Shown here one piece after another: positions 964-10,511 of a stretch of DNA of 10,606 bases. Both the position numbers and the translations under genes were made by a program. The notes under the pieces were generated by a model. It was not told the DNA's origin, did no database searches, and worked only from the letters and a program-made list of their open reading frames with translations. Source of the DNA: an archaeon (GTDB lineage Archaea > Iainarchaeota > Iainarchaeia > Iainarchaeales > 1-14-0-10-31-34); assembly GCA_043815885.1 (NCBI GenBank), contig JBDRIL010000028.1, positions 1 through 10,606 of the forward strand. Reading direction: 5' to 3'. Numbering within the stretch: position 1 is the stretch's first letter; the number at the start of each line of letters is the position of its first letter.

Positions 964-1038
964 AAAATTTGGATTAATTTAGCTTTCAACCTATAAAAAA
1001 GAAAATAAATATAAAGAGAAACAAGCTAATTATTGTCT

Positions 1039-2163
1039 ATGAAAAAAATAGATTTAATTTTCTTTATCAGTATCATGATTTTTCTTTTTTTGGTTGGATG
1101 CATTCAAACGCCTCCACTTATATGTGAGGATGGAATCCACGCCCCTGGAGAAAGCTGGAGTGTCAGATGCAATACATGTGGTTGTGGCAGGGATGGAATA
1201 ATCATTTGTACTCAAGCATATTGCCCTACTTTTTGCGCTGACGGCATACACTCAGTTGGAGAAAGATGGTTGGCTGAAGATGGATGCAATACATGTACCT
1301 GCACTAAAACAGGGATTGCCTGCACTGAAATGTATTGCGTTCCTGAAGGGGACTTTGAGGTTCATGAATGGGGCGTAATGGCTGGCTGTAGCGAGAGCGA
1401 TGGTTTTTTTGTTACTTCAAGGCCAAAGCAATTGCTTTTAGTGAGACAACCTGTTGTATACATTCATTCTGGAGAGGGGATTGAATCATTTGATGCAAGC
1501 TTTGAATTTAATGAAGGAAACCCGACAGACACTTATCCAGAAGCAGTAGTTGAAGGAAAAAAAGTTGAATGGAATAATGTAAGGATTGTGGATTCCTGTG
1601 GAGAGCCTGCGGTAAGGAGTGTTAAAGGATTTGTTCCTTTGGAGGAAATAATTGATGAATTAAATGATGTTGATGCTGATTGTTTGGAAGTTGGAGATGA
1701 AAAGAACAGATTTCTTTTCTATGAAGGGGAAATGGGCTTTGAAAATCCAATAGAGGCAGAAGAAATTTTGGATGAGAATAAAGTGAAAGTAAAAAATAAT
1801 GCTGATTATTCAGTATTCAATTTGTTTTTTGTTTCAGGCAAAGGCGATTTCATGAATCCAATACATCTTTCCGGAAGAGTGGAAGAATTGAAGGCAGGAG
1901 AAGAAAAAACAATTGAATTGAATGAAGAGGATAAGAGCAATTTTATTAGAGAGGATTTATTGGAATTGGGTTTCACTGAAAAGGAAACCAATGCATTTAC
2001 TTCTCTTTGGGATTATTCCTTTTTTAATCCAACGAATACCGGATTCGAGCAAGTGGTTTATAGGCTTCCGCAAGAGAAGTATGATGAATTAATTGAATCT
2101 TTTTACAATCCCAAGCCAAAAAAAGAAGTAAGGGCATTATATGTTTTATTTGATTTAAGTTGA
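1039..2163 (+). CDS. Predicted lipoprotein with two pacifastin-like Cys-rich repeats and an uncharacterised C-terminal domain
   Basis: MKK plus hydrophobic stretch plus LVGC lipobox (ATG 1039 preferred over TTG 1033). Two CNTCxC-x3-G-x2/3-CT-x3-C repeats. C-terminal domain carries VHEWG, QPVVYIH, TYP and FLFYEG motifs. Confidence 0.8.
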   Translation: MKKIDLIFFISIMIFLFLVGCIQTPPLICEDGIHAPGESWSVRCNTCGCGRDGIIICTQAYCPTFCADGIHSVGERWLAEDGCNTCTCTKTGIACTEMYCVPEGDFEVHEWGVMAGCSESDGFFVTSRPKQLLLVRQPVVYIHSGEGIESFDASFEFNEGNPTDTYPEAVVEGKKVEWNNVRIVDSCGEPAVRSVKGFVPLEEIIDELNDVDADCLEVGDEKNRFLFYEGEMGFENPIEAEEILDENKVKVKNNADYSVFNLFFVSGKGDFMNPIHLSGRVEELKAGEEKTIELNEEDKSNFIREDLLELGFTEKETNAFTSLWDYSFFNPTNTGFEQVVYRLPQEKYDELIESFYNPKPKKEVRALYVLFDLS

Positions 2164-7688: not shown

Positions 7689-7835
7689 GCCCTGATAGTC
7701 TAGCGGTTAGGATGCGGCCCTGTCGCGACCCCTTTTTCTTTTAGAAAAAGAAAAAGTGGTACGTTATCCCAAAAAGAAAAACGTAATTGTTATCGCAGCT
7801 AGGCCGCGACTCGGGTTCGATTCCCGGTCAGGGCG
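7689..7835 (+). tRNA. tRNA-Asp (GTC) with a 75-nt intron at canonical position 37/38 (exons 7689-7725 and 7801-7835); CCA not encoded
   Basis: Acceptor stem GCCCTGA/TCAGGGC with discriminator G. D-arm containing AGCGGTTAG. Anticodon stem CGGCC/GGCCG with CT-GTC-G. T-arm TCGGG-TTCGATT-CCCGG. BHB: CTGT (7720-7723) pairs with GCAG (7795-7798), flanked by 3-nt bulges CG^C and CT^A. Confidence 0.93.
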
Positions 7836-7909: not shown

Positions 7910-7931
7910 AAAAAAAAGAAAAAAAAAGAAA
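7910..7931 (-). terminator. Oligo-T terminator of the DUF296-like gene
   Basis: TTTCTTTTTTTTTCTTTTTTTT on the minus strand immediately after the TGA stop. Confidence 0.6.
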
Positions 7932-8309
7932 TCAGGCTACAATCATTTTTTTTAGGTCTACTTTTCTGACACCTATTTCGAGGGTTCCGGAAGCCTTTCC
8001 TTTTATTAGTTGGCCTCCTTGTGGAGTGAAGCCTGTCTTGGTTATGGAGACCCTTATAAGGGTAGTGAAGTTTCCTGCATTGGATTTCTGTATCTTGCCG
8101 CTTATGGCATTAACCTGGAATTCTTCTTTGGCACTCATTTTTTCAATGCTTCCTCTTGGGCCATTTGAAACCAGTTCAAATTCCTTTATTTTGCCGCAAG
8201 CGCTAACCAAAAAGCCATAACCAATATCCTGTTCTTTTGCAAGATTCTGCAGTCCTTCAATTATATCGGAACCATCCTTCAGCATTAAAGCAAACATGTT
8301 TTCGGTCAT
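7932..8309 (-). CDS. PPC / DUF296 domain protein, degenerate (no His ligands)
   Basis: FALMLKDGSDIIEGLQNLA...GFLVSACGKI...VNAISGKI...GGQL...TLEIGV follows the DUF296 pattern. AGGAGG SD before ATG 8309 makes this the likely start rather than 8345. Confidence 0.8.
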   Translation of the reverse strand: MTENMFALMLKDGSDIIEGLQNLAKEQDIGYGFLVSACGKIKEFELVSNGPRGSIEKMSAKEEFQVNAISGKIQKSNAGNFTTLIRVSITKTGFTPQGGQLIKGKASGTLEIGVRKVDLKKMIVA

Positions 8310-8321
8310 AAAAACCTCCTT

Positions 8322-8354
8322 AAAAAAAATTATTGGGGGCATCAAAAAGCCCCC
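8322..8354 (-). terminator. Terminator/attenuator-like hairpin between the short ORF and the DUF296 gene
   Basis: Minus strand GGGGGC-TTTTTGAT-GCCCCC followed by AATAATTTTTTTT. Confidence 0.55.
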
Positions 8355-8378
8355 TTAGATGAAAGAAATTTTTATTAT

Positions 8379-8429
8379 TTATTCCATTTCTTCGGTTTCT
8401 TTCTTTTTCTTGGTCTTTCTTTTTGCCAT
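8379..8429 (-). CDS. Putative 16-aa basic/acidic small peptide MAKRKTKKKKETEEME
   Basis: Manual translation: ATG at 8429, TAA at 8381-8379. Strong SD GGGGAGGA 7 nt upstream. Too short for the ORF track. Confidence 0.55.
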   Translation of the reverse strand: MAKRKTKKKKETEEME

Positions 8430-8464
8430 TAAGGATTCCTCCCCTTTTTTAAATAGGCAGAATC

Positions 8465-8517
8465 GGCGTTTTGCTAGAATCAGTTTCAAGCCGCCACAGC
8501 AAAAAAGCTGCCACGCC
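8465..8517 (-). ncRNA. Candidate structured 5' leader RNA (three-way junction)
   Basis: GC-rich island in AT-rich DNA. Minus-strand helices: P1 GGCGT/ACGCC, P2 GCAGC-T6-GCTGT, P3 GCTTGAA-ACTGA-TTCTAGC. Starts about 25 nt downstream of a TATA box. Confidence 0.4.
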
Positions 8518-8542
8518 TTAATCAATGTTGCCTCTTAATCAG

Positions 8543-8550
8543 TATTTAAA
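8543..8550 (-). promoter_or_regulatory. TATA box (TTTAAATA) for the leader/peptide/DUF296 transcript
   Basis: Consensus archaeal TATA on the minus strand, predicting a transcription start near 8519-8523. Confidence 0.55.
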
Positions 8551-8559
8551 TATATCTAA

Positions 8560-8649
8560 TATCAAAAGACATTAATTATGAAAATTTTTTAATGTCTTTT
8601 GATAGCTATCAAAGGACAAATTTTGTTTCTATATTTTTGTCCTTTGATA
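8560..8649. repeat. Two adjacent perfect inverted repeats made of four copies of TATCAAARGACA
   Basis: TATCAAAAGACATTAA 8560-8575 and TTAATGTCTTTTGATA 8589-8604 (16 bp arms). TATCAAAGGACAAA 8607-8620 and TTTGTCCTTTGATA 8636-8649 (14 bp arms). Confidence 0.92.
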
Positions 8650-8698
8650 TAAAGCAAAAAAACAAGAAATAAAAAGATAATCCCGCTTATTTGTGTGC

Positions 8699-9061
8699 AT
8701 GTTTGTAAGGGATTTAAAGGAGTGTAAGGAATTCAGGAGTGGGGATAATGCTGCTTTTAGGGAGTTATTTAATCCATTAAAGGATGAATTAAAGTTAAAT
8801 TACAGTCTGGGGAGAGCAGTAGTAAAGCCTGAGAGAAGCACGAAAAAGCATAAATTGAAGTCAAGTGAAGTGTATTTTATTCTGAAGGGAAAGGGAGTAA
8901 TGTTTATTGATGGGGAAGAGAGAAAAGTGAGGGAAGGGGAAGCGATTTATATTCCTCCTGAATCAATTCAGAGAATAAAGAATAATGGAAGTACAGATTT
9001 AGTTTTTTTGTGCATTGTAGAGCCTGCATGGAAGAAAGAGGATGAGGAAGTAGTTGAATGA
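8699..9061 (+). CDS. Cupin domain protein (Cupin_2-like)
   Basis: HKLKSSEVYFILKGKG and GEAIYIPPESIQRIKNNG match cupin motifs 1 and 2; LVFLCIVEPAW tail. ATG 8699 preferred over GTG 8693. Confidence 0.88.
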   Translation: MFVRDLKECKEFRSGDNAAFRELFNPLKDELKLNYSLGRAVVKPERSTKKHKLKSSEVYFILKGKGVMFIDGEERKVREGEAIYIPPESIQRIKNNGSTDLVFLCIVEPAWKKEDEEVVE

Positions 9062-9118: not shown

Positions 9119-9979
9119 ATGAGAATAGGAATACTGGAGCTTAAAAGGGACGAATTCATTACTGCGGTGGTAAAGAGACTGAAAGGGCATAAAGTGAGTT
9201 ATATTCAGTTAAAGGAATGGACAGTGCCTCTTTCATCCAAGTACAGAGTCGTAATTGACAGAATGAGTTATGACAATAACCTGCTGAGGGAAATGCTGAA
9301 GAATTACTCTCTTGACGGGACTTATGTAATAAATAATCCTTTCAGTGCAAGCCTAAGCAATAAGATAGTGGACAGCAAGATTTGCTCTTCACTGGATATT
9401 CCGGTTCCTGAAACAAGGGTTTTCCCGATAATAGATGAAGAATTAAAGAAAACAATAGCTGAACCCAACTGGGAAAAATTAAAGGAAAAGATTTCTTTTC
9501 CAGTGGTATTCAAGCCGTATGACGGATATGGATGGACTGACGTGTATATTGTTGGCTCAATGGCGGAATTAAAGAATCTTTACAATGCATTCAAGGACGA
9601 GAACATTATGCTTGTGCAAAAATTTGTTTCTGCAACAGTGTACAGGGCTTTCTGCATAAACAAAAAGGATGTAATGATAAAGAAATGGAATCCCCCCCAG
9701 AATACTGACTTAAGTGAAATATCTTCTGCTGTAAAGAAGATAAAGAAATGGACTGTAAAGTTGAACAAGGCACTGGACTTTGATTTGAATAGCACGGAAT
9801 GGAGCATTGATGAAAAAGGAAAGCCTTTCATGGTGGATGCATTCAATGATGTGCCGCTCATTACAAGAAGGGAATTAAATGAAGAGCAATTCAACTGGAT
9901 TGTTGAGAAATTCACTGAATGCATTAAAGAAAAGGCAACAAGCAATGCAAAAAACAAAATGATTTTCAAGGTCAAATAG
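9119..9979 (+). CDS. ATP-grasp fold protein (RimK/glutathione-synthetase-like, substrate unknown)
   Basis: VVIDR, VINNP, NK...IPVPET, FPVVFKPYDGYGWTDV, MLVQKFV and DAFN motifs of ATP-grasp ligases. Confidence 0.82.
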   Translation: MRIGILELKRDEFITAVVKRLKGHKVSYIQLKEWTVPLSSKYRVVIDRMSYDNNLLREMLKNYSLDGTYVINNPFSASLSNKIVDSKICSSLDIPVPETRVFPIIDEELKKTIAEPNWEKLKEKISFPVVFKPYDGYGWTDVYIVGSMAELKNLYNAFKDENIMLVQKFVSATVYRAFCINKKDVMIKKWNPPQNTDLSEISSAVKKIKKWTVKLNKALDFDLNSTEWSIDEKGKPFMVDAFNDVPLITRRELNEEQFNWIVEKFTECIKEKATSNAKNKMIFKVK

Positions 9980-10052: not shown

Positions 10053-10511
10053 ATGTTTGGATTGGGTAAAGGAAAAATTGAGATCATTCTGGAAAAATAC
10101 AACTTCAGGCCAGGGGAAACCATTAAAGGAAAGCTATCACTGACTTTAAAGAAACCAATAAAGGCAAGGCAGTTGAGAGTGGAATTCGTTGGATTAAAGA
10201 CTTCAACGAGTACTGGGTTTGGAGTAGTGCAAAGAAACAGAAAAGGAAGCAGCCAGGATTACGTTCATAAATTTGAAATGCCATTGGATGGAGAAAAGGA
10301 ATACAGTGGAGGGGAATACAGTTTTGAGATAGCCATTCCTGCAGACATCCTGCAGAGAGGGACTGGCCCGGGAGGAGGAATAGGAAAAACCCTTCAGGCA
10401 GCACAATTCCTTTCAGGAACACTGACAAGAATATCCTGGTATGTTCAAGCAGCCTTAGATATAGAAAAAGGAATGGATGTAACTAAAAAGGTCCAGGTAA
10501 ACCTTGCATAA
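10053..10511 (+). CDS. Arrestin N-domain / Spo0M-like beta-sandwich protein
   Basis: IEIILEKYNFRPGETIKGKLSL...IKARQLRVEFVG, YSFEIAIP and ISWYVQAALDI...D motifs match the arrestin_N/Spo0M strand pattern. Confidence 0.72.
   Translation: MFGLGKGKIEIILEKYNFRPGETIKGKLSLTLKKPIKARQLRVEFVGLKTSTSTGFGVVQRNRKGSSQDYVHKFEMPLDGEKEYSGGEYSFEIAIPADILQRGTGPGGGIGKTLQAAQFLSGTLTRISWYVQAALDIEKGMDVTKKVQVNLA

Follow-up and report, generated by a model that had tools for sequence, protein, structure and literature searches.

A conserved leader RNA that may hide a Shine–Dalgarno sequence lies between a Tourist-like element and a PPC gene in an Iainarchaeales archaeon

Positions 7910 to 8650 of the archaeal contig JBDRIL010000028.1 (the window, that is the entire 10.6-kb contig C28 of an Iainarchaeales genome of 1.16 Mb in 62 contigs, 92% complete) appear to hold three separable things: a copy of a transposable element of the miniature inverted-repeat kind (MITE); a self-contained small gene, apparently conserved in Iainarchaeales, that would consist of a promoter, a structured leader, an extended Shine–Dalgarno sequence (SD), a lysine-rich micro open reading frame (micro-ORF) and a GC hairpin with a U8 tract; and a PPC/DUF296 gene with an SD of its own. 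In the reading that we favor, to which we give a probability of roughly 0.55 as a whole, the small gene is controlled by an RNA switch that sequesters its SD, and the PPC gene is expressed by read-through. An earlier note on this DNA had put the stretch forward as a candidate regulatory module, with four repeated boxes as the operator and a micropeptide and attenuator hairpin ahead of the PPC gene. All the elements that it listed were found by sequence on the minus strand where it had placed them. The features on which the argument relies are as follows.

8560–8650, strand not assigned: 91-bp MITE made of two adjacent palindromes, with ends TATCAAARGACA and TGTCYTTTGATA as terminal inverted repeats
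8550–8543, minus strand: archaeal TATA box TTTAAATA of the leader/micro-ORF unit
8542–8531, minus strand: conserved promoter-proximal element CTGATTAAGAGG, between the TATA box and the presumed transcription start
8517–8456, minus strand: conserved structured 5′ leader, about 62 nt, GC-rich and foldable
8517–8514, minus strand: 5′ strand of leader helix P1, GGCG
8511–8507 with 8500–8496, minus strand: leader helix P2, GCAGC with GCUGU
8495–8491, minus strand: leader GGCGG
8483–8473, minus strand: leader box B1, CUGAUUCUAGC
8464–8459, minus strand: leader box B2, GAUUCU
8459–8456, minus strand: 3′ strand of leader helix P1, UGCC
8444–8434, minus strand: extended SD GGGGAGGAAUC of the micro-ORF, complementary to the leader tail GAUUCU.GCC (8464–8456) and to the 16S rRNA 3′ end
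8429–8379, minus strand: 16-codon lysine-rich micro-ORF MAKRKTKKKKETEEME, ATG at 8429 to TAA at 8379, with the SD GGGGAGG at 8444–8438
8354–8322, minus strand: GC hairpin (GGGGGC/GCCCCC, 8354–8335, six G-C pairs, 8-nt loop) with T8 at 8329–8322
8309–7932, minus strand: histidine-less PPC gene, PF03479 (PCC/DUF296), with the SD AGGAGG at 8320–8315
7927–7910, minus strand: T9-C-T8 tract

A structured leader conserved in Iainarchaeales

A sequence of the form GCGUGGCAGC-U(n)-GCUGUGGCGG ... CUGAUUCUAGCAA ... UGAUUCUGCC recurs upstream of PPC orthologues and corresponds to the leader, the start and foldability of which are as the earlier note had them, its 3′ end being placed at 8456 instead of 8465. 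Altogether, we counted 16 instances in 14 Iainarchaeales genomes of eight families (f1, f10, f11, f13, f16, f20, f27 and f28). Searched with a covariance model, the window genome yields a single significant match, which scores 85.9 bits while the runner-up reaches 16 bits, and 14 of the 151 genomes of the order match at E ≤ 0.01, two of these being weak matches (L050 and L051) that were rejected on inspection. Matches were obtained in 2/13 genomes of family f27 and 6/23 of family f20, where four (L231–L234) were likewise weak and rejected on inspection. A phylum sample, in which 14/151 genomes matched at E ≤ 1e-4, adds G164, with two copies, and G168, and 0/11 genomes of families f33–f37 gave a leader match in it. 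A pattern scan of one genome per species over 185,579 species returned 59 loci; six scored at least 37 bits with the model and are archaea already in the covariance-model set, and the other five model matches are weak and bacterial. In a metagenome pattern scan, none of 80 loci among the matches listed was convincing under the covariance model (one at E 0.00099).

Comparison of the whole window with Rfam 15 at E ≤ 1 placed only a tRNA above its gathering threshold. For the 8310–8560 segment at E ≤ 10, the best match was L20_leader, at 19.1 bits against a threshold of 58.7, on the terminator part. A literature search at title and abstract level returned nothing joining Iainarchaeota/Diapherotrites with a riboswitch or a structured RNA. 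It is thus quite likely, judging from sequence comparison, that the leader is a conserved structured RNA of a previously undescribed type, confined, as far as searched, to Iainarchaeales.

The pairing potential of the leader was examined on an alignment of 14 sequences. Helices P1 (GGCG/UGCC) and P2 (GCAGC/GCUGU) together have 90.3% of their cells paired, with five of nine pairs changed on both sides, a result equaled by 1 shuffle in 500, slid registers being 24–76% paired. The P2 3′ strand can equally well pair with the UAGC of box B1 (96.4% paired, two pairs compensatory), and all three strands change together in L013 (GCGAC / GUCGU / UGAC). Moreover, an extended P2, in which the 5′ GCG pairs with the second GUGGCGG, is 92.7% paired, with C-G in eight sequences and U-A in three; the latter are near-identical and therefore probably reflect one event. 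That the three helices are mutually exclusive, each with compensatory changes of its own, is suggested, not proved, by these figures. The picture is that of a conserved structured domain of the 5′ untranslated region with covariation, as expected of a riboswitch, in a sample of 14–16 related sequences, and agrees with the structured leader of the earlier note.

The most conserved letters of the leader lie in the unpaired boxes, which are repeated (two copies of GUGGC, two of UGAUUCU). A third helix, GGCGG with the GCC preceding B2, was considered and set aside, being kept, as judged by eye, in some sequences only. Complementarity between UGGC and the G-CCA end of tRNA-Lys suggested a T-box-like sensing of this tRNA, an idea that was dropped because the AAA that follows B1 is not conserved. 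Note that in two instances, L011:1974-2166 (minus strand, genome G017) and L237 (G164), GGCGG and B1 are separated by a structured insertion, about 130 nt long, which has its own long-range helices (GAAACUU/AAGUUUC) and leaves the flanking boxes intact.

Pairing of the leader tail with the micro-ORF Shine–Dalgarno sequence

The 3′ tail of the leader, GAUUCUGCCU, is able to pair with the extended SD of the ORF that follows; in the window, the partners are GAUUCU-G-CCU and the SD region GGAGGAAUC. Since GGAUCACCUCCU is the end of the 16S rRNA, the leader tail is a mimic of the anti-SD. The tail–SD duplex is better than at least 95% of shuffles in 10 of the 16 instances, and among 14 cassettes the cognate duplex amounts to −10.4 kcal/mol versus −8.7 kcal/mol for non-cognate ones (permutation p 0.00035), with the qualification that, in short-loop cases, the tail and SD windows share a few bases in the duplex test. 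The SD is mostly paired in the minimum-energy folds of 9/12 cassettes and becomes free (0–1 nt paired) in 7/12 when P1 is forced.

The leader could thus act on translation initiation as an RNA switch with two states. In the first one, the tail (GAUUCU-G-CCU) would close P1 with the 5′ GGCG, leaving the SD free. In the second one, the tail would pair with GGAGGAAUC and hide the SD, the 5′ GCG would extend P2, and box B1 would compete for the 3′ strand of P2. A small molecule, an ion or a polycation might tip the balance, and so might a protein, with PPC and the peptide itself as candidates. An expression platform that overlaps P1 and hides the SD, as expected of a cis-acting RNA switch, is found computationally; that switching actually occurs is what the folding model would imply, and we give the SD-sequestering switch, taken alone, slightly less than even odds.

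Promoter of the small gene

A TATA-like box begins 29–33 nt ahead of the first paired base of P1 in 12/16 instances, near-variants occupying the same place in the other four, and the window leader begins about 33 nt past its TATA box. Given this spacing, the leader would therefore begin at or near the transcription start, which fits the start that the earlier note had predicted near 8520.

Just past the TATA box, a CTGATTRAG stretch is conserved, and TTTAAATACTGATT is present at only 1 of the 194 TTTAAATA sites of the genome, namely at this locus. Upstream of their PPC orthologues, L005, L006 and L008 have a TTTAAATACTGATTGAGG-like sequence, of which L012 and L016 show variants. The promoter-proximal element (8531–8542) may be a regulator site. 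L005 and L006 (genomes G020 and G051) keep the promoter TTTAAATACTGATTGAGG upstream of the PPC orthologue and give no leader match, the leader motif being absent or replaced. As a side observation, a basic micro-ORF (MAAKKGAKKKSKSSSSCGCGCGGTMDE) is still present in L005, along with a small hairpin that pairs with the SD and another hairpin followed by T8.

The micro-ORF and the hairpin that follows it

An SD-led ORF of 9–38 codons comes after the leader in 14/16 instances. The encoded peptides (e.g. MAKKKKKKK, MAKKKAAPKKKAKKKK and MAAKKKAAKKKVAKKKRK) are lysine-rich, lysine making up 43% of the residues after Met1, with a net charge of +3 to +20 and an alanine in second position in 10/14, and we infer that the micro-ORF is translated. 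Neither the sequence nor the length of the peptide is conserved. Five of the peptides searched against Pfam at E ≤ 10 gave nothing apart from one meaningless match, and the possibility that they are ribosomal proteins was abandoned for want of a meaningful match. The peptide of the window ends in an acidic tail, ETEEME, that is missing from the orthologous peptides.

Of the 14 cassettes, 13 have a hairpin with an energy of −9.8 kcal/mol or lower no more than 90 nt after the stop codon. In the window, it is one of three terminator-like sites in 1.6 kb versus 1.6 expected; this count, together with the recurrence of the leader and of the element order in other genomes, points to more than chance. 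The hairpin with its U8 is probably the terminator and 3′-end hairpin of the small unit, a leaky one. The hairpin stands anywhere between 2 and 87 nt from the stop codon, and only about a third of the cassettes have at least five U in a row behind it; such variable spacing and so few U runs argue against ribosome-coupled attenuation. The predicted fold displays neither an antiterminator nor an alternative antiterminator pairing, so the coupling between helices that classical leader-peptide attenuation relies on is missing from it, and attenuation of this type, proposed by the earlier note, is not supported.

The PPC gene and its association with the leader

The protein encoded downstream (125 residues, no histidine) matches PF03479 with E 9e-11 and 42.6 bits for a cut-off of 25. 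Its AlphaFold model has a pLDDT of 93.3, and the top eight PDB matches found by Foldseek are all PPC proteins (2h6l, 2dt4, 3htn, 3hwu, 2hx0, 2p6y and 2nmu among them, TMq 0.73–0.78), so that its identification as a histidine-less DUF296-like protein holds. It shares Pfam family and fold with the solved PPC/DUF296 proteins (AF0104, entry 2h6l, titled 'metal-containing'; 2dt4, the P. horikoshii PPC; 3htn; 3hwu), but differs from them in lacking any histidine: T/L, I/R and Q occupy the positions aligned to H..H..H of 3htn. The 3htn histidine pattern is also missing from two PPC paralogues of the same genome. In some solved members, 2h6l in view of its title, these histidines presumably form a metal-binding site. 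A title-level literature search on PPC function returned only papers on plant AHL proteins; the link to AHL regulators drawn by the earlier note comes down to a shared fold and family.

PPC orthologues of other families are 41–58% identical to the window protein. The order promoter, structured leader, SD and basic micro-ORF, GC hairpin, PPC gene is kept, in line with the earlier note, at seven loci of four families (f1, f10, f13 and f27), the PPC orthologue being the next gene in the cassettes L004, L008, L013, L011, L237, L012a and L045. The leader is linked to PPC at two further loci, L016 and L046 (families f16 and f20), but stands directly before it there, with no micro-ORF in between. The other 7/16 cassettes have unrelated or unassigned neighbors, one of which reads in translation like a gene for ribosomal protein L21e. 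Two genomes with a cassette, G018 and G052, gave no match for a PPC orthologue in the ortholog search, and many genomes with a PPC orthologue gave no leader match. The association between PPC and the cassette is thus frequent, not obligate, and the elements listed in the earlier note are not one module.

In the window, the U8 tract abuts the PPC SD, which leaves no room for a promoter between them; PPC is therefore probably expressed by read-through of U8. Downstream, the T9-C-T8 tract is likely to be the archaeal terminator of the PPC transcript.

The four boxes belong to a dispersed MITE

The four boxes are copies of the half-site TATCAAARGACA, found on the plus strand at 8560–8571, 8593–8604, 8607–8618 and 8639–8650 and forming two palindromes, one with 16-nt arms (100%) and the other with 24-nt arms (83%). 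A half-site scan of the genome revealed the same arrangement on many contigs, and extraction and alignment yielded at least 20 full copies of 87–94 bp on 16 contigs, with conserved spacers. Such recurrence changes the meaning of the boxes, from operator to repeat. TAA direct repeats flank the window copy (8557–8559 and 8651–8653), and 18/20 copies have identical 3-bp flanks (TAA in nine, TTA in eight, TGA in one). All 20 are intergenic, none lying within an ORF of at least 100 aa; four are located between convergent genes, a place devoid of any promoter that could be regulated, seven between divergent and nine between tandem genes. In the sequencing run X1, the likely source run, summed contig depth rises from 5.6 to about 350–400 over 8575–8628, with contigs breaking at both MITE ends (8556/8559 and 8650/8652); the repeat is also present in three other runs.

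A BLAST search with the element matched 6/41 genomes, the window genome included. Related copies at E ≤ 1e-10 are present in 3/40 other genomes (nine in G033, 19 in G023 and one in G007), and G027 and G034 have one short match each, close to the E-value threshold. When upstream regions of PPC homologues were aligned, the check that the earlier note had called for, leader, micro-ORF and hairpin recurred at several of the loci, but the boxes were absent from all the orthologous loci compared. Altogether, 8560–8650 is very probably a copy of a Tourist-like MITE inserted at TAA, not a dedicated operator. The insertion lies 7 bp upstream of the minus-strand TATA box, between two divergent promoters, and a MITE that has landed beside a promoter can pass for an operator.

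With the Tourist-like MITEs, which duplicate TWA and have IS5 or PIF-Harbinger partners, the element shares a non-coding body of about 90 bp that ends in inverted repeats, duplications of 3 bp (TWA), intergenic copies by the dozen and a patchy distribution over related genomes. Unlike them, its body consists of two complete palindromes whose loops occur either way round among copies (compare C11:10062-10149 with C28:8560-8650), as if each hairpin loop could flip, and no partner transposase was recognized here with PF01609 and PF13359.

Weighing the switch and its alternatives

Several observations weigh against the reading that we favor. The leader sample is small, with 16 related instances, and related sequences can beat shuffles without any structure; G046 and G052 have near-identical copies, which means that some of the 'compensatory' cells count one event. 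P1, no more than 4 bp long, is imperfect in 3–4 sequences. The tail–SD duplex is no better than shuffles in L012b, L012a, L043 and L047, and the two leader-to-PPC fusions show no clear sequestration. The P1-forced state is 0.5–13 kcal/mol less stable than the minimum-energy fold and therefore would need outside stabilization; this is the fold pattern that an ON-switch dependent on such stabilization would show. Nor do the controlled genes point to a ligand. As regards the MITE, no IS4/IS5 or Harbinger-type transposase (PF01609, PF13359) was found in the 92%-complete assembly, other transposase families not having been searched.

A more specific proposal is that the leader is a riboswitch-type sensor specific to DPANN archaea, the three competing helices gating an Ala-Lys-rich polycation and a PPC protein devoid of a metal site being co-expressed by read-through; by analogy, the micropeptide would resemble a histone H1 tail or a protamine. 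We hold this version to be unlikely, at perhaps one chance in four.

Two alternatives are less probable still, and about equally so. According to the first, the transcript of about 200 nt is mainly a trans-acting small RNA of the dual-function type, like SgrS/SgrT in being a small RNA that also codes: its single-stranded boxes CUGAUUCUAGCAA and GAUUCUGCC would mimic the 16S rRNA 3′ end and pair with the SD regions of other mRNAs, the micro-ORF being secondary. The unit indeed has its own promoter, its own hairpin/U-tract end and one copy per genome, the 7/16 cassettes away from PPC stand beside unrelated genes, and the conservation of the unpaired boxes, together with their resemblance to the anti-SD end GGAUCACCUCCU, fits this idea. 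However, SD and AUG are properly spaced in 14/16 instances, the tail fits its own SD better than the SDs of other cassettes, which points to an action in cis, and the leader sits directly on the PPC mRNA in two genomes.

According to the second, the leader serves autoregulation by binding a protein, as ribosomal-protein leaders do, a PPC trimer or the polylysine peptide binding the repeated GUGGC/UGAUUCU boxes and thereby setting the SD-sequestering fold. The duplication of both boxes and the adjacency of leader and PPC in 9/16 instances, two of them fusions, speak in its favor, as do the titles of deposited PPC relatives ('putative DNA binding protein'). However, G018 and G052 have a cassette and no PPC orthologue match, the peptide is conserved neither in sequence nor in length, and we are aware of no evidence for nucleic-acid binding by PPC domains.

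The integrated cassette, with the four boxes as operator and translation of the basic leader peptide governing termination at the hairpin/T8 and hence read-through into PPC, accounts for the element order kept at seven loci and for the read-through that the missing PPC promoter calls for, but is very improbable: its boxes are a MITE also present between convergent genes and absent from orthologous loci, and its attenuator lacks regular spacing, U runs and an alternative antiterminator pairing. Just as improbable is that the boxes act on DNA, GTGGC (two copies) and CTGATT (three copies, one before the start) forming operator sites, placed after the TATA box, for a transcription factor: they are direct repeats, and CTGATT lies in the non-transcribed promoter-proximal element as well as twice in the leader, but helix changes pass via G-U pairs (G-C to G-U to A-U), pairs specific to one strand that would be A-C mismatches on the other, arguing for RNA instead of a DNA site, the tail co-varies with its own SD, and 130-nt structured insertions between boxes are tolerated in L011 and L237.

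Genomic setting

Two features border the stretch.

7689–7835, plus strand: intron-containing tRNA gene (78-nt intron; Rfam, 44.8 bits), in convergent orientation to the PPC gene
8669–8701, plus strand: promoter and start region of a divergent cupin gene (Cupin_2, E 1.3e-12), ATG at 8699

The tRNA, which is unreported by ARAGORN, has by eye a GUC (Asp) anticodon. The cupin gene probably starts at ATG 8699 without an SD. Some 26 nt ahead of this ATG, and about 19 bp beyond the MITE edge on that side, is a TATA-like AAATAAAAA that would put the start of the gene at the ATG, and the cupin mRNA may therefore be leaderless. Further along the plus strand are a RimK-like ATP-grasp gene (9119–9979, TIGR00768 E 6e-10, below cut-off), two genes from the micro-ORF, and a gene for a 152-residue protein with a weak Arrestin_N match (10053–10511, E 1.7e-6). 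At 1033–2163 (plus strand), a secreted Cys-rich protein is encoded that matches Pacifastin_I (E 6e-15), VWC and TILa, domains that are usually found in animals and are unexpected in an archaeon. Finally, sequencing run X2, from a different groundwater study, contains a 151-nt contig identical to 8385–8535 (leader and micro-ORF start); the same or a near-identical organism therefore occurs elsewhere.

Discussion

The predicted switch resembles translational riboswitches and other SD-sequestering RNA switches, namely bacterial ON-switches and a few archaeal classes, in having a conserved structured domain at the 5′ end, a closing helix P1 whose 3′ strand doubles in the anti-SD helix, and mutually exclusive folds with covariation. 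Unlike them, it matches no Rfam 15 family, precedes a polylysine ORF of 9–38 codons and not an enzyme or transporter gene, and is found, as far as searched, only in Iainarchaeales. With ribosomal-protein and other autoregulatory mRNA leaders it shares a position ahead of a very basic small product and repeated boxes that could bind a protein, but the product is too variable in length and sequence for a structural ribosomal protein, and the mimicry of rRNA is limited to the resemblance to the anti-SD end. As in leader-peptide attenuators of the trp, his and pheA type, a structural gene is preceded by a short ORF, itself placed between promoter and terminator hairpin; unlike in these, no terminator/antiterminator alternative overlaps the micro-ORF, the spacing is variable, and archaeal termination is not known to need more than U tracts.

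The cis-regulatory RNAs known from archaea are few. The leader occurs once per genome, is short and shows high conservation, and it comes with a clear switching model that opposes P1 to the anti-SD helix. If the riboswitch-type sensor proposed above is real, it would rank among the rare RNA switches of archaea, here in cells whose genomes are very small, and would be, to our knowledge, the first RNA switch to control a polylysine micropeptide. Such a micro-ORF would escape standard gene callers and may represent a new kind of small basic protein or a device that senses translation.

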